Part shown: positions 383 through 36,141 of the stretch, piece after piece
Layout: each line of letters begins with the position of its first letter
How positions within the stretch are numbered: the first letter of the stretch is position 1
Source of the DNA: a virus
Taxonomy: Duplodnaviria > Caudoviricetes
Length of the DNA stretch: 64,000 nucleotides
Strand: one strand, 5' to 3'
Virus record (IMG/VR): IMGVR_UViG_3300029305_002828
Location: 31,278-95,277 of that record
The notes under the pieces: model-generated
The model's database searches: none
What the model saw: only the letters and a program-made list of their open reading frames with translations
What the model was told of the DNA's origin: nothing
Made by a program: the position numbers and the translations under genes

Positions 383-442
383 ATTTATTCAGGAATACCA
401 AGTTTATAATTGATTAAAATAAACAATAAAGGAGTTGATAAA

Positions 443-3259
443 ATGAAAATCGACATTCTTGATATTAATAAACTAATTGGAGTTAATAATCTACAAGAAG
501 TTACATCTCCTAGACTATTTTCAAATAAAATGATGTATGACCCACAAGGCATTTTATCTAATGATATCTTTGGTATTTCTAAAGGAGATAGGCGTGGAAC
601 ATTTGCATATGTTAATCTAAACCGTCACTTCATTCATCCTCATATCTATTCTAAGGTATTGAAGGATATGTTTAAGGGAATAATTTATATTGTATCTGGC
701 CAAAGATATTATTCCGTTAAAGATGGTAATTTAGTTGAAGATGAAGATAATGGTTGGACTGGCCTTGAAGAACTTTATAAACATTGGAATGAAATTAATT
801 GGAAGAATAAGAAGTCTGATAATGCTGTAAATAAACAGCTCTTATCTAATTTAACCAGAGATCAAGTATTCATTGATAAGATGATTATTTGTCCTCCTGC
901 ATATCGCGATGTTATGTTAGCTGGCACGGTTGACTCTTCTGACCATCTTAATGAATTAAATGATCTTTATGTAAAACTGATTCGTACTACGTCTTCTCTG
1001 AATGAGGGTGGTGTATTTGCTGCTAGACAGTATGCTACCCAAATGAAAGTTCAAGAGATTCTTGTTGATATTATGACTTACTTTAAGAATCAGATTTCTA
1101 AGAAGCAAGGTTTGATCCGCAAGAATCTTATTGGTAAGAGTGTAGACTATGGTGTACGTGCAGTTATCTCTGCTCCTACTTATAACAATAATCATATCAA
1201 TGATAATATGATTGACTTTGAGCATGTAGCATTACCAATCTCTCATTGCTGTTCTACATTCTATCCTTTCATTGAAGCGTGGTTAAAGAACTTCTTCACT
1301 AGAGAAATCATCAACGATCCGAATATGATTTCATTCTATGATTATGATCTCAAGAGAGAAATCACTGCTACATTAAAAGATCCTGATATTCAATTCTCTG
1401 AGAAGAATATCAAGAAGATGATCAATGACTATTGTTTGAACCCTGATAATAGATTTAAGGTTATCAATGTTGATGTTGAGATTCCTAATGCTAAGGGAGT
1501 CAAGATTAAGAAAGCATCTATTATCCTTAAAGGTAAAACAATGCTTGACAATAATATATCTCAGGTACTTAAAAGATCTATGACTGTCACTGATATATTA
1601 TATCTTGCATGCGTAGATGTTTGTGAAAAACGTCATGTTATGGTGTCAAGATATCCTGTTGGTACAGATAAAGGTATCTATTTCAATAAGATCAGAGTAC
1701 AGTCTACCACTCAGCATGTTAGAGTTATCTTCAATGGAAAAGAATATCCATTCTATCCTAAGATTGATTTTGATATTCCTCAGGATAAAGTTGGTGTTCA
1801 GTTCATTGATACTCTTGTAATGTCTAACTCTCACCTTGAGGGTATGGGTGCTGACTATGACGGTGACCAAGTTTCTATCCGTGGTATTTGGAGTGATGAA
1901 GCTAACCTAGAAGCAGAACAAATTATGGATCAGAAAATGTCTGTATTAAACATTACTGGCACTAATGCAATGGTAGTTGCTAAAGAAGTATTTAACTCTC
2001 TTTACGAACTTACTAAGATTGGTCCAGAACCTGGTAAACATATTTCTGATATTGATCAACGTAGATATTTAGCTTTACAACCTAATGGGATCACTCTAAG
2101 TCTATTGACTGAAATGTTTGCTGATACAGTAGATACTTCAAGTAAAGATAGAAACGTTGGTAAGCGTAAAGCTAAGCATAAAACTTGGGATATTATATCT
2201 GTACCTAAGGATCATTTCTTTGAAGGTTCTCCAGCTGTAGATCTTACAATTGGTAGATTCATCGCAAATAAATTTATGTTTGAATCTTGTGGAATTATTT
2301 CTATATTGGGGATCTTCAATAATGTAATGAATAAAGGTAGCATTGGTGCAATCGATAATTTGGTTGGTCAAATTCTCATGGAGAATAAAATTAATAAAAA
2401 GCAGTTTAATAGTTATCTTGAACATCGAGATACTTTAGGCTACTGGCTGAATGGTATGCTTGCTCATACTATTTCTGAAAGAATGTTGAAACCTCTTCCT
2501 GAGATTGAAAAGAAGAAAGCTGAACTTTGTAAAAAATATGAAAAGGAACTTGCAGAGGGTAATATTGATGTAATGACCAAGATTAGTGATGAACTGGTTG
2601 CATATGCAAAGGAAATTTTAAAAGGTGATCCTGGTATGGATCTCTATGACTCTGGTGACTTGGATTTCGGTAATAACTACAAAAACAATGCTATCTTGAA
2701 AGGTGCCGTAATCAATAAGATCACTAATGAATATGACTTTATCTCTAGCTCCTTTATGGGTGGTATTGAAATTAAAGATATACCTGCCCATGCAAACAGT
2801 ATTCTTGCAAGCCAGTATCCCGCATCTATTGCAACTGCTGCAGCTGGTTATATGGGTAAGAAACTACTTGCACTTTTACAGATGATCGAGGTAGATGAAC
2901 CTGGTACTGATTGTAGTACTAAACAATTAGTCCCAGTAAAGATTACTAAACATAACTCGAAAGATATGCTGTATACCAACATTGATAACGGAAGCGGTCA
3001 ACTGACTATGTTGACTAAAGAAAATATTAATTCTTACATAGGTCAAACTGTTAGAATGAGATCCCCAATGACTTGTGTAAATGATAAAATTTGTTCTAAA
3101 TGTGCAGGTAATCTTTTCTATATGCTTGATGTCAAACATGCAGGTCTGTTTGCTACGCAAATTTCCCACTCTGCATTAAACTTAGGACTTAAAGCAAAGC
3201 ACAATAGCTTGGTTGAACTGTTTACATTTAAACCAGAAGAACTTATTGAAGATATTTGA
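443..3259 (+). CDS. rpoC: Phage multisubunit DNA-directed RNA polymerase beta'-like subunit (N-terminus to trigger helix, catalytic)
   Basis: GILSNDIFG, CPPAYRD, KQGLIRKNLIGKSVDYGVRAVIS, SRYP, catalytic GADYDGDQV, bridge helix TAAAGYMGKKL, Zn motif RSPMTC...CSKC, trigger LNLGLKAKH; ATG 443 follows AAAGGAG. Confidence 0.93.
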   Translation: MKIDILDINKLIGVNNLQEVTSPRLFSNKMMYDPQGILSNDIFGISKGDRRGTFAYVNLNRHFIHPHIYSKVLKDMFKGIIYIVSGQRYYSVKDGNLVEDEDNGWTGLEELYKHWNEINWKNKKSDNAVNKQLLSNLTRDQVFIDKMIICPPAYRDVMLAGTVDSSDHLNELNDLYVKLIRTTSSLNEGGVFAARQYATQMKVQEILVDIMTYFKNQISKKQGLIRKNLIGKSVDYGVRAVISAPTYNNNHINDNMIDFEHVALPISHCCSTFYPFIEAWLKNFFTREIINDPNMISFYDYDLKREITATLKDPDIQFSEKNIKKMINDYCLNPDNRFKVINVDVEIPNAKGVKIKKASIILKGKTMLDNNISQVLKRSMTVTDILYLACVDVCEKRHVMVSRYPVGTDKGIYFNKIRVQSTTQHVRVIFNGKEYPFYPKIDFDIPQDKVGVQFIDTLVMSNSHLEGMGADYDGDQVSIRGIWSDEANLEAEQIMDQKMSVLNITGTNAMVVAKEVFNSLYELTKIGPEPGKHISDIDQRRYLALQPNGITLSLLTEMFADTVDTSSKDRNVGKRKAKHKTWDIISVPKDHFFEGSPAVDLTIGRFIANKFMFESCGIISILGIFNNVMNKGSIGAIDNLVGQILMENKINKKQFNSYLEHRDTLGYWLNGMLAHTISERMLKPLPEIEKKKAELCKKYEKELAEGNIDVMTKISDELVAYAKEILKGDPGMDLYDSGDLDFGNNYKNNAILKGAVINKITNEYDFISSSFMGGIEIKDIPAHANSILASQYPASIATAAAGYMGKKLLALLQMIEVDEPGTDCSTKQLVPVKITKHNSKDMLYTNIDNGSGQLTMLTKENINSYIGQTVRMRSPMTCVNDKICSKCAGNLFYMLDVKHAGLFATQISHSALNLGLKAKHNSLVELFTFKPEELIEDI

Positions 3260-29369: not shown

Positions 29370-29376
29370 GTAAATG

Positions 29377-29409
29377 ATAAAGTGGTGGGTATTACACCCA
29401 CCACTTTAT
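29377..29409. terminator. Hairpin terminator
   Basis: ATAAAGTGGTGGGT-loop-ACCCACCACTTTAT. Confidence 0.7.
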
Positions 29410-29469
29410 TTTCTTATTATTTACATTCCATTTAATTAAGTTAAAATATATCAAAGAGGTGAATGTAAA

Positions 29470-31284
29470 ATGAATGCATTTAAACTAGAAAAAGATATTA
29501 TACTGTACAAGGTGCAGTTTGATAAATATTGTCTAAATCTTTTTCATGAATATAGACTAGATAGATTGTCTCTAGATGTAGATGGATTATTATTTAGGAT
29601 CAAATATATGGTTAAAAATAATAAAGATCTTGATAAGATTCCAGAGTTACAAGATCAGTTTATTGAAAAGGCTAGACAACTTCACAATTCTTTCGGTGAA
29701 TTCCTATATCTTTTAATCGCTCAAGTTATTGGTATTCCGGATCCGTTTAAACTTGATGACTTAGAAGATATATTAGCACAAGATGTAAAGATCGATACTA
29801 CCTATGTGAAGTTTAAGATGGTAGTAGTATCAAGTAATAAAGAATTCCTTGAGTATATTGATAATAGTATTCCTGAGGATGAAGTCTATAATATTGATAA
29901 AACCGAATATTTTAGATTTAATACTGATTCTTATAATGATGGAGTATCTAAAGCATATCCAGAATTATTTGAAGATCGTCATCAGGATGTTGTCGGTAAA
30001 GGTGCAGATGGAGATGTCTTCGTTCATAACTTCACATTTCAAACATCAGAAAGATGTTCCCTTAACTGCACTTACTGTTATCAGTTTAATAAAACTCCAA
30101 TGAGAATGCCATTTGAAACAGCTAAAACTTTCATTGATAATCTTTTAGCAGATAAATATGGATATATTAACAGATATAATTCTCCTGCCATTATCATTGA
30201 ATTTATTGGTGGAGAACCTTTAATGGAGATTAAACTTACTAGGAAGATTTATGAATATTTCCTTGAGAGATGTTATGAGTTAGATCATCCTTGGTTTACA
30301 CTTCATAGAGTATCCATCTGCTCTAATGGTATGCAATATTTCAATCCAGATGTCCAAGCATTCTTTAATGATTATGCTCAGAATGTCTCCTTTAATATTT
30401 CAATTGATGGTAATAAAGAGTTGCATGATGCTTGTAGAATTCAGCCTAACGGTGAAGGTAGTTATGATATAGACATGGCTGCTCTTAATCATTATAACAA
30501 ACATTTTACTCCAGAGCGTAATTCTAAGATGACTCTTGCTCCATCTAATATGAAATACCTATTTGATTCTGTAGTAGATTTCATTAATAATGGAATGACA
30601 TGTATCAATATTAACTGTATCTTTGAAGAGGGATGGAATCAAGAAACTGCTTTAATTGAATATCAACAATTAAAGAAGTTAACAGACTATATCTTAGATA
30701 ACAATCTTGAGCATCTCTATATTGCTATCTTTAATGAGATACAGGAAGATATGTTTTCTAAGTATAATGATTCTGCTCCATGTGGTGGTCAAGGATCGAT
30801 GCTTGCATTAAGACCTAATGGCCAGTTCTATCCTTGTATTCGTTATATGCCTACATCAGTTGGTGATAATGTAAAGGATCTTTGTATTGGCCATATTGAT
30901 ACAGGTATTGTTGGGCGTGAGCAAGATTCTGAAATTCTTCAGATGATGGACAGAATTACTCGTAGAAGTTACAGTAATGATATTTGTTATGAATGTCCAT
31001 TGAGTAATGATTGTGCAAACTGTATTGCACTTGGCCATACTGTATTTGGTACACCTAATAAAAGACCTACATTTATTTGTATACAGATGATTGCAGAAGC
31101 ATTAGCTAATGTATATTACTGGAATAGATTATTGCTTAAACATCCTGAATATGATCTTCCTATACGAAAGAATGTAGTTCCTGATGAGTGGTCTTTATTG
31201 GTAATTGATAAAGATGAACTTGATTCTCTTAAACTATTAGAGTGTGCTGCAATCGCTTCTAAGATAGAGTTAGGAGGTAAATAA
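29470..31284 (+). CDS. Radical SAM/SPASM peptide/protein maturase, CXXX-repeat target family-like (TIGR04115-like), with about 180-aa N-terminal extension
   Basis: FTFQTSERCSLNCTYCYQ (CX3CX2C), EFIGGEPLME, SNG, ISIDGNKELHDACR, GSYD; SPASM cysteines CGG...YPCIRY...CYECPLSNDCANC...C. Confidence 0.9.
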   Translation: MNAFKLEKDIILYKVQFDKYCLNLFHEYRLDRLSLDVDGLLFRIKYMVKNNKDLDKIPELQDQFIEKARQLHNSFGEFLYLLIAQVIGIPDPFKLDDLEDILAQDVKIDTTYVKFKMVVVSSNKEFLEYIDNSIPEDEVYNIDKTEYFRFNTDSYNDGVSKAYPELFEDRHQDVVGKGADGDVFVHNFTFQTSERCSLNCTYCYQFNKTPMRMPFETAKTFIDNLLADKYGYINRYNSPAIIIEFIGGEPLMEIKLTRKIYEYFLERCYELDHPWFTLHRVSICSNGMQYFNPDVQAFFNDYAQNVSFNISIDGNKELHDACRIQPNGEGSYDIDMAALNHYNKHFTPERNSKMTLAPSNMKYLFDSVVDFINNGMTCININCIFEEGWNQETALIEYQQLKKLTDYILDNNLEHLYIAIFNEIQEDMFSKYNDSAPCGGQGSMLALRPNGQFYPCIRYMPTSVGDNVKDLCIGHIDTGIVGREQDSEILQMMDRITRRSYSNDICYECPLSNDCANCIALGHTVFGTPNKRPTFICIQMIAEALANVYYWNRLLLKHPEYDLPIRKNVVPDEWSLLVIDKDELDSLKLLECAAIASKIELGGK

Positions 31285-32244
31285 ATGAATTCGGTATCAA
31301 TTAAACCAAACAGTCTCTCTATAGGATACAATGTTACAGGTCAAGATTTTTTTGATACAATTTCTGGATTCTCTGATTTTGTTCATTCATATTTTTTCTC
31401 ACTAACTGAGGATGTTCATGGTAATAAGTTTGATTCCGATAAAACATTCAAGACTCTATGTGAATGTGAGAAGTATGGAATGAAAGGAAATCTATTACTT
31501 AACCGATTTGATTCTTCTGGTTTATATTGGCATCTGGTTCAAAAAGCAAGAGAAATCGACGGATTATCCGGTGTCACAGTTATTCATCCAAAGATTGCTG
31601 AATGTATTAAACAGGATTTTCCAGAATTAGAAGTTCATATTTCTGTTCGATATTGGGATTGGTTGGGTGATAGAGATGGAACAATCCGCACAAATCCATT
31701 CGACAAGATTAAACTTCTAGCTGAGTCTGGAGTAGATGTTGTAAATATATCTGGCGAACTTCATTTCAATAATAATGATGTAATTGAATATATCCATGAA
31801 GTTGGAATGAAAGCAAAAATCATTATTAATGAAGGATGTATTATTGGTAGGGAATATAACTATAATAAATTTCCGGAGTTTGAAGAATTTGATTGTAAGG
31901 GTGATAAAGGTGGTAAGGATGGTAAATGTGGACGACATTGTATAGATTTATTTGAAAAGTATCCTTGGATGAAATTATCTAGAATAGGATTATTTAAGGA
32001 AGATCTATTATATCATAATTATGATATTTTTAAAATTGCTTCCAGAATGATTTCGAATAAAGATCTATATGACATTTTAGTTAAATTCGTTCTAAGCCCT
32101 AGAACTATAAATCTCTTTGGAGTTCCTATAACTGATGATAATTATCAAGCATTTATGAATTGGATTGCTGACAGATCTAATTGTCCAATTGACTGCTATA
32201 ATTGTAGGAAATGTGAATACCACTATAATCAAATAACAAAATGA
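31285..32244 (+). CDS. U32 peptidase-family-like Fe-S protein
   Basis: FPELEVHISV, KIIINEGC followed by three further Cys, FKIASR, C-terminal CPIDCYNCRKC; starts immediately after the rSAM stop. Confidence 0.7.
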   Translation: MNSVSIKPNSLSIGYNVTGQDFFDTISGFSDFVHSYFFSLTEDVHGNKFDSDKTFKTLCECEKYGMKGNLLLNRFDSSGLYWHLVQKAREIDGLSGVTVIHPKIAECIKQDFPELEVHISVRYWDWLGDRDGTIRTNPFDKIKLLAESGVDVVNISGELHFNNNDVIEYIHEVGMKAKIIINEGCIIGREYNYNKFPEFEEFDCKGDKGGKDGKCGRHCIDLFEKYPWMKLSRIGLFKEDLLYHNYDIFKIASRMISNKDLYDILVKFVLSPRTINLFGVPITDDNYQAFMNWIADRSNCPIDCYNCRKCEYHYNQITK

Positions 32245-32247
32245 TTG

Positions 32248-32280
32248 ATTAGGATAGGGATTCTAAATCCCTATCCTAAT
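32248..32280. terminator. Hairpin terminator
   Basis: ATTAGGATAGGGATT-loop-AATCCCTATCCTAAT. Confidence 0.7.
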
Positions 32281-32304: not shown

Positions 32305-32341
32305 AGTCATGATTGAAATAAGTAACATGGAGGTGATTTAA

Positions 32342-35014
32342 TTGAATAGAGATTTATATTCTAATATAGAATTTACTGATCTCAAAGAAAGATTAAATCA
32401 AGAGATATTACGTAGAGGAACTTATCGATGGTGGGATCCTCTTACTACTCCATCAGTTGGTGAAGACCAAAGTCCACCATTAACTATACCTGCTTCTGGA
32501 GGGCAGATTATAGTTGATGATAAAACTTATACTGTCAATAATCCTTCTGAAGGATCTCTTGAAAGAACTAGGAATGTTCATTATCCAGCCCAAGGAGAAA
32601 ACCCTGCTGGACAAAACCCTGATCGAAAATCTACTGTACCTAATACATCTGCAGCTCAATTAAATGTAGATGAACTTCGAAACCTATTGATTGGTCTAGC
32701 TAAGATACAAGATATCAACCTATTCTATGGACGAGATGAAGTTCAATATCTTGCATTTAGAGATCCTCAAGGTATTGAAGATGCATTGATTGCTGCAGAG
32801 AAAGCTCCATTAAATAAACCTTTAAAAGAGTCTGATATCTTTCCTACAAAGAATGATCCAAATGGTGGTTTAACAAATTCATTACATGATAACTATCCTA
32901 ATGCTAAATTGAATGTAACATATCCTACAAATAATAGAGGGGAATATGTTATGCCATCTGGGGAGTTCGATGGTGAAGAGGTTAAACAATATGAAGGTTT
33001 AGGCCCATCTAACTTTTATGACGACTATGGTGCTAAACCTGGAGACAATAATTATCATCCTTATAATAGATTCATATCTGAAACTGTTAAACGAGATTGG
33101 CATGATCAAGATAATGAACGCAATGTTATTGTAACTAAAGTTAGACAAGGTGGAGTATCATCTAAACGATTTGGTACCAATCCTCGCAATCCTCAACAAG
33201 GTAATGAATATCAATCTCGTCCAGTATATGGTGGTGTAATTAATAACTGTAATAATGCATGTACAGGTTTATGTTACGTCACTTGTGATAATCAATGTTC
33301 GGAATCTTGTACTACTACATGTTGGAGTAGATGTGGTAATGCTTGTACTTCATCCTGTGGTAACGTTTGTACTGGATGTAGTACAATGTGCTATTCTTCT
33401 TGCAAGACTAAGTGTGAGAATAATACTGGATACTCATGTGTAACAGCTGGAGCTAAGGCAGTTAAGATTACTACTACTGGCGGTAAGAATGGAATTCCTG
33501 CAAAGAATAATATTGAAATCCAAACTTATTCTTGCACTGGATGCTCTTATAGCTGTCAATTCTATCCTAATAAGAAAACTGAATGTTGGGACTCCGGGTG
33601 TATGGGTAAATGTTTTACCTCTTGTACAACTTCTTGTTCTACTTCTTGTTATGGTGGATGTATTGATAATGCTGAGGAAAAGAGTACTGGATATCGTACG
33701 GGCAAGGGCAGAGGTTGTGATGGTGGATGTACTCTAAACTGTATTGCTCTCTGCCAGGGTATTTGTGAAGGATATTGTGTTCAGACTTGCTGGCATGCAT
33801 GTAAACAGAAATGTTCTGATAACTGCTCTTGGAAATGTACTACGAATTGTGGACATGGTTGTGCAACTGGTTGTACTCAATCTTGTACTGGTTGTGCTGG
33901 CGAATGTTCTGGTAGTTGTAAGGGAGAAGCAAGACAAGTAGCCTGTGTTGGTTGTTCTATGGAAGGTGGGTGTGTTTCCATTTGTGCATCTGACTGTAAT
34001 TCTAACTGTGTTGGTTGGGGTTGTAGATCTATCTGTGGTGTAGATGGTGGTGACGCATGTGAATCCAACTGTAGATTGAACTGTATGGGAACTTCCTGTA
34101 CATCTATGTGCTCTGATGCATGTAGTGAACAATGCACTACTTGTGTTAACAACTGTGGTTGGCAATGTGGTATGTGTTCTTCTCAATGCTCTACTGGATG
34201 TTCTCAGGAATGTAACATTACATGTAGTGCAGCATGTGAACATAGTTGTGAAACTAACTGTGTCATGTCTTGTACTGAAACATGTGGTGGATGTTCTAAC
34301 CTCTGCTACTCTTGTGTAGGCATGTGTATTGGAGTATGCTCTGTTAAGTGTGAGAATGGATGCTCTAGCTGTACTAATAATTGTGGTTACTGGTGTGATT
34401 CTACTTGTAGTCAGGCATGCTTCTCTACTTGTGATAATATGTGTATCCAGACTTGTATGAGCTCTTGTGTATCTTTCCTTGAATCTGATACTAAAACTAG
34501 ATTATCAGGGCCTGAAAGATTACCTACTTCAGCTGGGTACATTTATCCTGATCCTAAGAACAGATGGGAACAAAGAGAATCCTTTAAGTTAACTCGATTC
34601 ATTCCTAGACCTTATAAAGTTAAGGATGATGAAAAAGAAACACTTATCCATATTACTCTTGATGAGGATAAGAACTTAAAGATCATTTGTCCTGAAGCTC
34701 TTACATATGTTATCAAGCAAACTGTTGTCAATGGTGGTGTATTTACATATGACAATGATGGAAATATTCATATTGATGAAGATATGCTTCCTGCAATTGT
34801 AAATGTTAATAAACCTAATATTGATGATGGTGGAGGCATCTACATTATCATATTTGATAAGAATGATGAGATAACATTTACTGATGAAGATATTTCTTTT
34901 AATCTTCCGTTTGGAATTAATCTATTCCCTCTAATAAAAGATAAGAAGGATAACTCTCTCGTAATTGTACAAAAAGATCCATTCTTATATTTTGATGAAG
35001 AGGTGTTGCCATAA
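32342..35014 (+). CDS. Giant Cys-rich CXXX-repeat protein; putative radical SAM modification target
   Basis: 890 aa; about 88 Cys counted by hand in a 407-aa central segment with mostly C-x3-C spacing; Cys-poor N- and C-terminal domains; GGAGGTG RBS before TTG. Confidence 0.85.
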   Translation: MNRDLYSNIEFTDLKERLNQEILRRGTYRWWDPLTTPSVGEDQSPPLTIPASGGQIIVDDKTYTVNNPSEGSLERTRNVHYPAQGENPAGQNPDRKSTVPNTSAAQLNVDELRNLLIGLAKIQDINLFYGRDEVQYLAFRDPQGIEDALIAAEKAPLNKPLKESDIFPTKNDPNGGLTNSLHDNYPNAKLNVTYPTNNRGEYVMPSGEFDGEEVKQYEGLGPSNFYDDYGAKPGDNNYHPYNRFISETVKRDWHDQDNERNVIVTKVRQGGVSSKRFGTNPRNPQQGNEYQSRPVYGGVINNCNNACTGLCYVTCDNQCSESCTTTCWSRCGNACTSSCGNVCTGCSTMCYSSCKTKCENNTGYSCVTAGAKAVKITTTGGKNGIPAKNNIEIQTYSCTGCSYSCQFYPNKKTECWDSGCMGKCFTSCTTSCSTSCYGGCIDNAEEKSTGYRTGKGRGCDGGCTLNCIALCQGICEGYCVQTCWHACKQKCSDNCSWKCTTNCGHGCATGCTQSCTGCAGECSGSCKGEARQVACVGCSMEGGCVSICASDCNSNCVGWGCRSICGVDGGDACESNCRLNCMGTSCTSMCSDACSEQCTTCVNNCGWQCGMCSSQCSTGCSQECNITCSAACEHSCETNCVMSCTETCGGCSNLCYSCVGMCIGVCSVKCENGCSSCTNNCGYWCDSTCSQACFSTCDNMCIQTCMSSCVSFLESDTKTRLSGPERLPTSAGYIYPDPKNRWEQRESFKLTRFIPRPYKVKDDEKETLIHITLDEDKNLKIICPEALTYVIKQTVVNGGVFTYDNDGNIHIDEDMLPAIVNVNKPNIDDGGGIYIIIFDKNDEITFTDEDISFNLPFGINLFPLIKDKKDNSLVIVQKDPFLYFDEEVLP
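33248..34468 (+). repeat. C-x3-C / C-x2-C coding repeat tract
   Basis: TGT/TGC codon roughly every 12 nt with non-identical spacers. Confidence 0.9.
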
Positions 35015-35292
35015 TGGGAAAGATAACTGAAGTATTCTACAAAGAAATAGATCCTAAAGCATGTAGTGTACAAGATGCTTCTAAATATCATTATTTATTT
35101 AATCTCTTAAAGTATCATGAAATGTTTCAAACTGATTATGAGAAATATGAAAGAGATCAAATTCTATTAAGGAATTCATTAGTAGGTAATGCTATTGAAG
35201 CTGGAGAATTAAAATGTCCTCCAAAGATGAATACTACTATCTTTGGGATCTCTGCTCAAAAGAATAGAGCTGTATTAATTATTGAAACTTAA
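35014..35292 (+). CDS. Small protein coupled to the CXXX-repeat gene; possible accessory/chaperone
   Basis: TAATG stop/start overlap; 92 aa, helical with terminal beta strands. Confidence 0.65.
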   Translation: MGKITEVFYKEIDPKACSVQDASKYHYLFNLLKYHEMFQTDYEKYERDQILLRNSLVGNAIEAGELKCPPKMNTTIFGISAQKNRAVLIIET

Positions 35293-35295
35293 TTA

Positions 35296-35324
35296 ATGAG
35301 GAGGGGAGTTAATCCCCTCCTCAT
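35296..35324. terminator. Hairpin terminator
   Basis: ATGAGGAGGGGA-GTTAA-TCCCCTCCTCAT; core identical to 58380-58404. Confidence 0.7.
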
Positions 35325-35388: not shown

Positions 35389-36141
35389 ATGAAAGAACAT
35401 CCTTGGTGGAGAGCATTCCTACTTGATGCATTTGATGATAATCATGAGATTGTTAAAACATTTACAACCGGAGGTATTCAAAAAGTATTTTCTAAAATAT
35501 GTCCCAGAGAACAAGAAATGATACTGATGAGGTATCAATACAATTTTACTTATGATTACATAGGAAAACATTTCGGTGTTAGTAAAGAAAGGATCCGAGA
35601 GATCATAAGTAGAAATCGGCGTAGTATGAGAAGGCCATGGAATCTTGAACTATTGACTGGTAATGAAGCTCCAATGGAAGGAACTCCTCTTGCTGAACTC
35701 GGATTGTCTACAATGACTTTTAATGCATTGGTAAGAAGAAACATCTTAACAATTGAAGCTTTGAAATCCTATAAAATGGATGACATCTATAGGTTCTATC
35801 ACATTGGTAAGGTTGGAGTAAAGGAGATCATAGATAAAATTACTGAATACGATAAGGCTCATAATAACGAAATAACCGAAATGAGGGAGGCTAGTAAAAT
35901 GACTCTTAGAGCTGTCAGCAAGGTTATATATAATCCTGGCACTGCATCTGAAAACAGAAACATCAAGGTTATCACAATGAGTGATAATCGACTTCTTTGG
36001 GAGGGCCCTGCAAAAGAACTAAAGACATGTCCAGAAATTAAAAAGAATTGGGAGGTAGTTGAAATATTGGTAGATAGGACTACTAAGGTTGAAGCCAATA
36101 TTCCTGATTACAACCGAGGTAAAATCATTGTAGTTGTTTAA
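35389..36141 (+). CDS. Sigma-70 region 4 HTH fused to RNAP alpha-CTD-like domain
   Basis: PREQEMILMRY...TYDYIGKHFGVSKERIREI (sigma 4.2); LAELGLSTMTFNALVRRNILTI...IGKVGVKEI (alpha-CTD); TATATATTCT at 35349. Confidence 0.8.
   Translation: MKEHPWWRAFLLDAFDDNHEIVKTFTTGGIQKVFSKICPREQEMILMRYQYNFTYDYIGKHFGVSKERIREIISRNRRSMRRPWNLELLTGNEAPMEGTPLAELGLSTMTFNALVRRNILTIEALKSYKMDDIYRFYHIGKVGVKEIIDKITEYDKAHNNEITEMREASKMTLRAVSKVIYNPGTASENRNIKVITMSDNRLLWEGPAKELKTCPEIKKNWEVVEILVDRTTKVEANIPDYNRGKIIVVV

Follow-up and report, generated by a model that had tools for sequence, protein, structure and literature searches.

An 88-cysteine ladder protein of a gut jumbo phage, a candidate protein-sized substrate of its neighbouring radical-SAM enzyme

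A ∼292-kb jumbo phage, phiKZ-like and with anaerobic gut bacteria as hosts, encodes an 890-aa protein in which 88 cysteines form a ladder of conserved length and spacing, downstream of a gene for a radical-SAM/SPASM maturase. On balance, we favour the reading that a RiPP-type thioether maturase has this whole protein as its substrate, and that the protein is probably an appendage associated with the tail. With distinctly less confidence, we propose that the radical-SAM enzyme builds thioether rings from most of the 88 cysteines, giving a poly-stapled module of fixed length that would serve jumbo phages of anoxic habitats as a reduction- and protease-proof tail or baseplate appendage. Coordinates are positions in the window, the 64,000-nt stretch of IMGVR_UViG_3300029305_002828 that was analysed; residue numbers are those of the ladder protein unless the enzyme is named, and features lie on the plus strand unless called unstranded.

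To our knowledge, nearly all RiPP-type thioether formation by radical-SAM enzymes takes place on short peptides, and very few substrates of protein size are known (QHNDH and, in 2026, CrpA). If the favoured reading is true, a strictly conserved substrate with 88 Cys, encoded by a virus together with the maturase that serves it, would carry thioether chemistry into virion building. It would also help to explain how the particles of gut phages stay stable in conditions under which disulfides fail, and could provide a natural scaffold for poly-stapled proteins. If most of the 88 cysteines are linked, no known protein would be more heavily cross-linked by an enzyme, and RiPP chemistry would have been recruited for building virus particles instead of antibiotics.

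Layout and conservation of the cysteine ladder

The ladder gene (32342..35014, stop codon included) starts with TTG, ∼6 nt downstream of a Shine–Dalgarno motif read from the sequence (GGAGGTG, 32329..32335). The protein has three parts: residues 1–302, the ladder (303–709) and the C-terminal remainder. Its 89 cysteines are distributed with none in the first part, 88 in the ladder (407 residues, 21.6% Cys) and a single one, C783, in the tail. The ORF, the cysteine count and an AlphaFold model, in which the C part is beta-rich over residues 769–878, bear out the architecture described in the earlier note, with a Cys-free N part, a ladder of ∼88 cysteines and a beta-rich C part with one Cys.

The 87 gaps between ladder cysteines comprise 68 CxxxC, 9 CxxC and 3 Cx4C spacings and a few loop inserts of 8–32 residues; the CxxC punctuations CTGC, CVGC, CTTC, CGGC and CSSC are all present. 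Shuffling of the 407-aa segment (n = 20,000) gave a mean of 9.2 CxxxC (sd 2.9, maximum 21), against the 68 observed. These 68 units are mutually distinct both in DNA and in peptide, and Tandem Repeats Finder detects a single 12-bp × 3.3 array and nothing else, which indicates that the periodicity is maintained at the protein level, as had been supposed. The first half of the ladder (residues 303–526; 33248..33919) contains 44 cysteines and runs from block L1 (303–366) through a predicted beta-hairpin insert (367–397), block L2 (398–440), which carries the nearly invariant QFYPNKKTECWD, and a loop (441–458) to block L3 (459–526). The second half (residues 535–709; 33944..34468) also contains 44. 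Profile autocorrelation of the ladder shows no clear lag, i.e. no higher-order periodicity or internal duplication.

More than 170 homologues of the ladder protein were found; a tblastn search of cultured phages with the whole protein returned none. Cysteine periodicity, on which the earlier note had staked its reading, is kept across 120 homologues of 47–83% identity, where the pattern of ∼68 CxxxC, 9 CxxC and 3 Cx4C is nearly constant. About 80 cysteine columns are invariant in an alignment of 103 sequences, and conservation within the ladder's spacers is specific to each of them (for example D316, G332, T464, N466, D493, R578, W684 and D686). A distant member, P0261, retains one ladder half, the first. 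Repeat number, for which variation among homologues had been suggested as a check, does not vary (83–92 cysteines in intein-free homologues), and a variable-number repeat is rejected by the constancy of count and spacing over the 120 homologues. Fixed length and position-specific sequence make the ladder look like a defined fold, not an extensible rod. In the full-length AlphaFold model, pLDDT is <50 across the ladder, with several stretches weakly predicted to be helical, so no predicted fold backs a rod. Of the two readings in the earlier note, the crosslinked rod has more behind it than the metal-binding one, on account of the resemblance to CXXX-repeat targets and the conserved TIGR04115-like enzyme upstream.

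Homing inteins of the Hint/LAGLIDADG type begin, in different homologues, at ladder cysteines 306, 322, 495, 603 and 651, and the insertion sites among relatives thus amount to five or more distinct ladder cysteines. These insertions argue that the ladder ORF is translated, a point on which the earlier note had also made its reading depend.

Flanking domains and gene order

The N domain (residues 1–302; 32342..33247) is predicted to be of mixed alpha/beta structure (pLDDT 76.5 when modelled alone) and is rich in Asn (10.6%), Gly (8.3%) and Pro (7.9%). It appears to occur only in the ladder-protein family: a phmmer search of 1.84 billion representatives gave 24 matches, 23 from its own family and one marginal and unrelated. 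No similarity was detected to the N regions of the Termititenax and L242 ladder proteins, and no known fold was matched by VIA (Z ≤ 4.0) or by Foldseek against PDB and BFVD (E > 0.1). Within this domain, a helix is predicted in both models at residues 8–24 (…FTDLKERLNQEILRRG; 32363..32413), and R24 and R25 are invariant. A similar motif starts small CXXX peptides of other phages, in L137 (FTSLKNLINTEITRRS) and in SPN3US (LKELNNRLNTIDAN), and the helix is a candidate leader-like recognition element.

The ladder is followed by a conserved linker (residues 710–760, GPERxPTSxGYIYPxPxNRWEERESFK; 34469..34621), retained even by homologues that stop there, and by an optional C domain (residues 761–890; 34622..35011) with one Cys and predicted beta strands (pLDDT 65–90). 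The C domain is missing from 13 of the 120 homologues, which end ∼50 residues past the ladder; the earlier note was right that this part is beta-rich, but the 'tip' it proposed is dispensable. Swapped receptor-binding C domains are largely rejected: of the 107 longer C-terminal tails, 100 group into a single family, and homologues differ mainly in whether they have the domain at all. No known fold was matched by the C domain (Z ≤ 3.9), VIA-align in wide mode with the whole model stayed at Z ≤ 4.0, Foldseek with the full-length AlphaFold model gave no match in PDB or BFVD at E ≤ 0.001, and ESM Atlas scores for the N and C parts (≤ 0.82) were uninformative.

Upstream, a GC-rich terminator-like hairpin with a 15-bp stem and a T-rich tail (29376..29410) ends a fibre-like gene, 5′ of the radical-SAM unit. 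That unit consists of the maturase gene (29470..31284) and an accessory gene for a weakly U32-like protein of 319 aa (31285..32244), and a perfect 15-bp hairpin (32248..32280, unstranded) parts it from the ladder gene. The Pfam Peptidase_U32 matches are below threshold, at E 0.014 for this protein and E 0.0011 for its homologue in the complete relative G001, where the gene also lies between the radical-SAM and ladder genes. It is rejected as a core component because five of seven related loci examined, L002–L005 and L007, do without it.

Downstream, the ATG of a 92-aa ORF (35014..35292) overlaps the stop codon of the ladder gene, and a small ORF occupies the same position in relatives. The 92-aa ORF has no Pfam, NCBIfam or PHROG match, and was rejected as a TIGR04116 helper for want of any detectable similarity; the TIGR04116 'CXXX_rpt_assoc' protein is absent, even at E ≤ 10, from the 95-kb record, which covers 32% of the genome. 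A bidirectional GC-rich hairpin terminator (35296..35324, unstranded) closes the unit. Matches in a promoter consensus scan are no commoner than in shuffles, and an early-type TTATATATTCT motif is present upstream of several other genes, not of the ladder gene.

The radical-SAM enzyme and the fate of the cysteines

The maturase (604 aa) carries a CxxxCxxC motif (C196/C200/C203) and seven SPASM cysteines (C438, C456, C506, C509, C515, C518 and C537), all invariant among 25 orthologues, and thus combines the two features looked for in a thioether-RiPP (sactipeptide/ranthipeptide) enzyme; an N-terminal extension of ∼185 aa precedes them. It matches the whole TIGR04115 model at 329–331 bits (E 4.5e-98), 20 bits short of the curated 350. 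The second-best family is PapB (141 bits), the family of CrpC, TIGR04463, reaches 41 bits, and the closest solved structure is CteB (5WGG; profile match E 7.9e-21). JGI and NCBI annotations already call its orthologues CXXX-repeat target family maturases, and a 76%-identical one (P0194) bears the TIGR04115-family name at NCBI. In every related locus examined, an orthologue is found immediately 5′ of the ladder gene, with 65–73% identity in L002, L003, L004, L005 and L007 and, there ahead of the U32-like gene, with 82% in G001. Bacterial relatives were not found in a first pattern scan of genomes. The characterised relatives of the enzyme (CteB, PapB, QhpD and the SCIFF maturases) form cysteine thioether cross-links, and it is most likely that the adjoining enzyme cross-links the ladder cysteines.

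With the TIGR04114 repeat model (cut-off 20), the ladder's best repeat scores 19.6 bits and the in-frame sum is 23.4 bits; the match is marginal, because a whole-protein hmmscan at E ≤ 0.01 listed no family. All homologues carry a precomputed PF27846 (tSAM_targ_Cxxx_rpt) assignment, which is 'faint' wherever match strength is given. The repeat models thus assign the ladder, marginally, to the CXXX-repeat type of radical-SAM target.

Gene neighbourhood suggests that the protein is probably attached to the tail or baseplate. The fibre-like gene upstream, with PHROG tail-fibre matches, keeps its position in relatives, and the vicinity of the ladder gene also contains virion structural genes by PHROG and a tail-fibre gene of 1294 aa. 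In Salmonella phage SPN3US, radical-SAM genes and two CXXX peptides of 130–134 aa have as neighbours a tail assembly chaperone, a DUF4376 protein, the virion structural protein gp167, and gp168, which is a tail protein (PMC5105663). L242 encodes a 54-Cys ladder fused to a sub-threshold F5/8-type-C domain, with a radical-SAM gene downstream. Scans for a TGY-N9 × 9 DNA motif gave mostly simple-repeat noise among the matches listed, which serve as examples and not as counts. The ladder protein matches no Pfam or PHROG fibre family, and neither its N domain nor its C domain matches any tail-fibre fold.

In the mechanism that we propose, the N-terminal helix or domain would dock the enzyme in the manner of a RiPP leader, and the radical-SAM enzyme, with its full set of SPASM cysteines, would travel along the ladder. 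By taking a hydrogen atom from a neighbouring residue and bonding that residue to the cysteine sulphur, it would create many small thioether rings, and these would make the ladder a rigid module resistant to reduction and proteolysis. The finished protein would remain uncut, keeping its conserved linker of 50 residues and, where there is one, its C-terminal beta domain, and would probably sit on the tail or baseplate, where thioethers would be stable in the reducing gut and disulfides would not. Counted against this thioether reading, Asp and Glu, the acceptors used by PapB, are scarce in the ladder (28 in 407 residues).

It is unlikely, but worth weighing first among the alternatives, that a ladder left wholly or mostly unmodified coordinates metals or Fe-S clusters, as a store, redox buffer or electron conduit, while the radical-SAM enzyme acts on few sites or on another substrate. 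The high cysteine content of the segment would suit such a role, the weakly predicted helices would align cysteines on one face, and a metal-binding role is suspected for CrpA by the authors who described it (PMC13692751). The ladder has no Fe-S or metallothionein family match in Pfam or NCBIfam, however, and its spacing is mostly CxxxC, not CxC, CC or CxxCxxCxxxCP. We know of no cluster or metallothionein site built on regular CxxxC without CxC, CC or CxxCxxC…CP motifs. Position-specific conservation of the non-Cys spacers indicates a defined fold, and metal binding does not explain why a maturase with characterised thioether-forming relatives should be strictly co-conserved; nothing was found to support the poly-metal, Fe-S or conductive-filament option of the earlier note.

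A disulfide-knotted structural protein, its dense network oxidised after lysis as in beta-helical antifreeze or keratin-like proteins, with an unrelated role for the enzyme, is a good deal less plausible. The even number of cysteines (44 + 44 in the ladder halves) and the location beside fibre genes would fit. Yet a signal peptide is absent and synthesis would take place in the reducing cytoplasm; by source names, the samples that yielded the phage family are from anoxic gut and rumen, where disulfides are unstable; P0261 has just one ladder half; and the conserved maturase is given no reason. Least probable, by a little, is a polyprotein precursor of secreted RiPPs, with the N domain as leader only and a modified ladder cut into small Cys-rich bacteriocin-like or signalling peptides: the maturase falls in RiPP-type families and canonical CXXX targets include short peptides, but the conserved block holds no protease or exporter gene, the ladder units all differ and lack a repeated cleavage motif, the linker and C domain after the ladder are conserved, and in several unrelated phages the genes have tail genes around them.

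Relation to known systems

The closest counterpart of the proposed enzyme–substrate pair is the CXXX-repeat radical-SAM system, made up of the TIGR04115 maturase, the TIGR04114/PF27846 target repeat, the TIGR04116 associated protein and the TIGR04117/04118 target variants. The TIGR04115 family is defined in silico only, and a literature search for 'CXXX repeat' or the TIGR04115 system found no paper, its single TIGR04115 match being unrelated. Common to both are tandem Cys-Xaa-Xaa-Xaa repeats encoded beside a radical-SAM/SPASM enzyme whose best model is TIGR04115. The phage target differs in its size, its orphan N domain, its fixed ladder with conserved inserts, and the linker and optional C domain that follow; the phage maturase differs in its sub-cut-off score and N-terminal extension, and the locus in lacking the TIGR04116 helper, in having a U32-like gene in some members and in residing in a jumbo-phage genome. 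Other CXXX targets are phage versions of 130–193 aa and the Tat-signal peptides of L107.

Compared with CteB (PDB 5WGG/5WHY) and PapB (freyrasin), the closest solved and characterised enzymes, the phage maturase has a common radical-SAM core and SPASM domain with two auxiliary clusters. PapB forms repeated small rings along a periodic cysteine motif, CX3D, and substrates of the CteB/PapB type are peptides of ∼45–50 aa with six cysteines and Asp, Glu or Thr acceptors. Acceptor chemistry would have to differ in the ladder, because the i+4 position is Cys and acidic residues are rare.

For a substrate of full protein size, the precedent is CrpA of Methanococcus voltae, a 28.8-kDa Cys-rich protein on which the radical-SAM/SPASM enzyme CrpC has been shown experimentally to place ranthionine cross-links (PMC13692751). 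CrpA too has a repetitive region, at its C-terminus, and AlphaFold confidence is low for its Cys-rich part as for the phage ladder (PMC13692751). The archaeal protein has ten 17-residue repeats with C-x-x-Q/D motifs and far fewer cysteines, in contrast with the CxxxC ladder of the phage (PMC13692751), and CrpC belongs to TIGR04463, in which the phage enzyme scores poorly.

The small CXXX peptides of cultured jumbo phages, in SPN3US gp166 and an unannotated neighbour (not in the RefSeq annotation), resemble the ladder protein in having a 20–21-Cys CxxxC ladder after an N-terminal helix motif, beside radical-SAM genes (gp163/gp164) and among tail and baseplate genes. They have no flanking domains, their simple ladder has G/S/T spacers whereas the ladder here is position-specific, and SPN3US has two radical-SAM genes, the larger encoding an enzyme 24% identical to the one here. 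These small versions in SPN3US-like phages make both the chemistry and the phenotype testable with existing genetics.

Cysteine layout and conservation of the ladder

The open reading frame at 32342-35014 (+) comprises 890 open codons from a TTG start, with GGAGGTG before the TTG at the usual distance. Its product contains 89 cysteines: none in residues 1-302, 88 in residues 303-709 (the ladder) and one (C783) in the tail. The 87 ladder intervals include 68 CxxxC, nine CxxC and three Cx4C, the remainder being loops of 6-32 residues; across 20,000 shuffled versions of the 407-residue segment there are 9.2±2.9 of the CxxxC kind and never more than 21. All 68 CxxxC units are mutually distinct at both the DNA and the peptide level, and Tandem Repeats Finder reports only one trivial 12-bp array. 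Every descriptive statement in the earlier note is borne out; the note had depicted a periodic Cys ladder between two Cys-poor domains.

The same periodicity is kept in all of the best 120 of more than 170 homologues found (47-83% identity). Among these 120, intein-free members have 83-92 cysteines, and the spacing spectrum is near-constant throughout (66-71 CxxxC, 6-10 CxxC and 2-4 Cx4C). An alignment of 103 sequences has ∼80 invariant Cys columns. The spacers are unit-specific, with conserved residues such as D316, G332, T464/N466, D493, R578, L654 and W684/D686, and conservation extends to the irregular inserts, namely a predicted beta hairpin (367-397), a nearly invariant QFYPNKKTECWD at 406-417 and a loop (441-458). 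The ladder has two halves of 44 cysteines each (303-526 and 535-709), and a search for a higher-order period within it found none. P0261 (678 aa), the remotest member of the family recovered, has the first half only, followed by an acidic tail. The ladder is a fixed structure, as opposed to a variable repeat.

Homologues of 1244-1346 aa contain Hint/LAGLIDADG inteins, which start exactly at ladder cysteines 306, 322, 495, 603 and 651 in different proteins. The gene for the radical SAM/SPASM maturase is also invaded, at its CxxxCxxC site: orthologues in two related loci (L005:7100-9973 and L007:6842-9067) and in a complete relative genome (G001:C1:281351-283618) carry the insertion near residue 200, within the motif or beside it. 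Homing inteins have therefore colonised the enzyme gene as well as that of its substrate. Inteins are not known to persist outside genes that are translated and under selection, so the possibility that the ladder frame is not translated falls away.

The partner maturase and the flanking domains

The radical SAM/SPASM gene (29470-31284 (+)) lies upstream of the ladder gene. Among NCBIfam models it scores best with TIGR04115 ('radical SAM peptide maturase, CXXX-repeat target family'), at 329 bits against a cut-off of 350, followed by PapB (141 bits) and then QhpD, CcpM, HxsB and the SCIFF maturase; the nearest solved relative is CteB. The CxxxCxxC motif and seven SPASM cysteines are invariant, and in each of the five related loci compared, as well as in G001, an orthologue immediately precedes the ladder gene. 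The ladder itself reaches the cut-off of the TIGR04114 repeat model, and PF27846 (tSAM_targ_Cxxx_rpt) is a precomputed Pfam match on all ladder homologues. The associated helper, TIGR04116, is not detectable in the 95,277-bp record, which is 32% complete (CheckV). Between the two genes lies a weakly U32-like 319-aa gene, which is accessory because it recurs in G001 but is absent from the other related loci. Hairpins bracket two units, one of the maturase and U32-like genes and the other of the ladder gene and a 92-aa ORF.

In the best-supported model, the maturase would join residues within the ladder by numerous thioether links, producing a rigid module that could not be reduced. Metal or Fe-S binding by the ladder is the first of the rival explanations and disulfide knotting the second; a polyprotein precursor ranks last.

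The N domain (residues 1-302) is modelled as mixed alpha/beta (pLDDT 76.5). Fold searches found no match for it among solved or predicted viral structures, and the 24 matches of an exhaustive phmmer search all belong to its own family save one marginal hit. The protein begins with a helix at residues 8-24 (FTDLKERLNQEILRRG, with R24/R25 invariant) that is similar to the N-terminal ends of phage CXXX peptides of far smaller size, and it is read here as a candidate leader-like recognition element. A 50-residue linker 3' of the ladder is conserved in all homologues. The beta-rich C domain, which matched no known fold in a structure search, is optional rather than swapped, since it is missing from 13 of 120 homologues and 100 of the 107 longer tails form one single family.

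The phage and its host

The window belongs to the 95,277-bp IMG/VR virus record mentioned above. Its relatives recur in assemblies of ∼292.5 kb, and an IMG/VR entry of 292,119 bp has a completeness rating of 100%. Among the products of the window are a phiKZ-type split beta subunit of multisubunit RNA polymerase, several PHROG 'virion structural' proteins and tail-fibre proteins. A 949-aa protein (410-3259 (+)) matches phrog_2986 and phrog_2962 (phage multisubunit RNA polymerase beta), which places the phage among the phiKZ-like jumbo phages. Contigs of the same phage family are binned with Ruminococcus and Lachnospiraceae MAGs, so the host is likely to be an anaerobic gut Firmicute.

The gene at 35389-36141 (+) encodes a 250-aa protein in which a sigma-70 region-4 domain (residues 39-81) is fused to the C-terminal domain of an RNA polymerase alpha subunit (residues 99-153), an unusual combination in a phage with its own multisubunit RNA polymerase. 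The early-type motif TTATATATTCT stands 5' of this gene. Repeats of (T)TATATATTCT, which may be an early promoter, lie 30-80 nt 5' of several non-structural genes in the window (starts 3349, 7562(-), 35389, 46692(-), 58308(-) and 62519(-)), with none 5' of the maturase or ladder genes.

Other CXXX ladders and known systems

Architectures among the matches listed from a motif scan of viral contigs include small tandem CXXX peptides (L222), a 183-aa form (L220) and a 460-aa protein (L242:5656-7035) in which 54 Cys form a C-terminal ladder behind an F5/8-type-C-like domain that scores below threshold (E 1e-4). This last ladder ends within five residues of the C terminus, and a radical SAM gene 33% identical to that of the window lies 3' of it. 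Cultured jumbo phages such as SPN3US also encode radical SAM/SPASM homologues. In Salmonella phage SPN3US (L136, the reverse complement of NC_027402 134168-147313), two CxxxC ORFs stand just 5' of two radical SAM genes: L136:3094-3486 (130 aa, 21 Cys), unannotated in RefSeq or GenBank, and L136:3497-3901 (134 aa, 20 Cys; gp166/gp100), whose annotation uses a later start and so loses the N-terminal helix. Their neighbours are a virion structural protein, the tail protein gp168 (PMC5105663), a DUF4376 protein and a tail assembly chaperone. It is gene neighbourhood only, in several unrelated phages, that suggests a tail- or baseplate-associated ladder protein.

Protein-size ladders are not confined to phages, since Candidatus Termititenax aidoneus (BGZN01000007; L112:2254-4257) encodes a 667-aa protein with 122 Cys and 99 CxxxC intervals. 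A Cys-free N region of ∼130 aa precedes this ladder, and a 134-aa ORF and a 399-aa radical SAM protein (TIGR04115, 275 bits) follow 3'. An Acidobacteriaceae MAG (CAIKND010000171; L107:1680-3963) has two precursor-like ORFs with twin-arginine (Tat-type) signals and C-terminal CXXX/CXXC repeats, which would represent an exported variant; the adjoining radical SAM protein scores about equally with PapB and TIGR04115.

A CXXX-repeat target paired with a TIGR04115 maturase is a kind of system already curated, known from curation rather than chemistry, and a literature search turned up no account of it in a phage or at protein size. Ranthionine formation by CrpC on the 28.8-kDa CrpA, demonstrated recently (PMC13692751), shows that such enzymes are able to act on proteins. 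The ladder chemistry cannot simply be a copy of that of PapB, because acidic acceptor residues are scarce in the ladder and the i+4 position is always Cys. The present analysis contributes the anatomy of the 890-aa form. An orphan N domain bearing a leader-like helix precedes a fixed 44+44 Cys ladder whose spacers are position-specific; a conserved linker and then a dispensable C domain follow, and the ladder has multiple intein sites among homologues.
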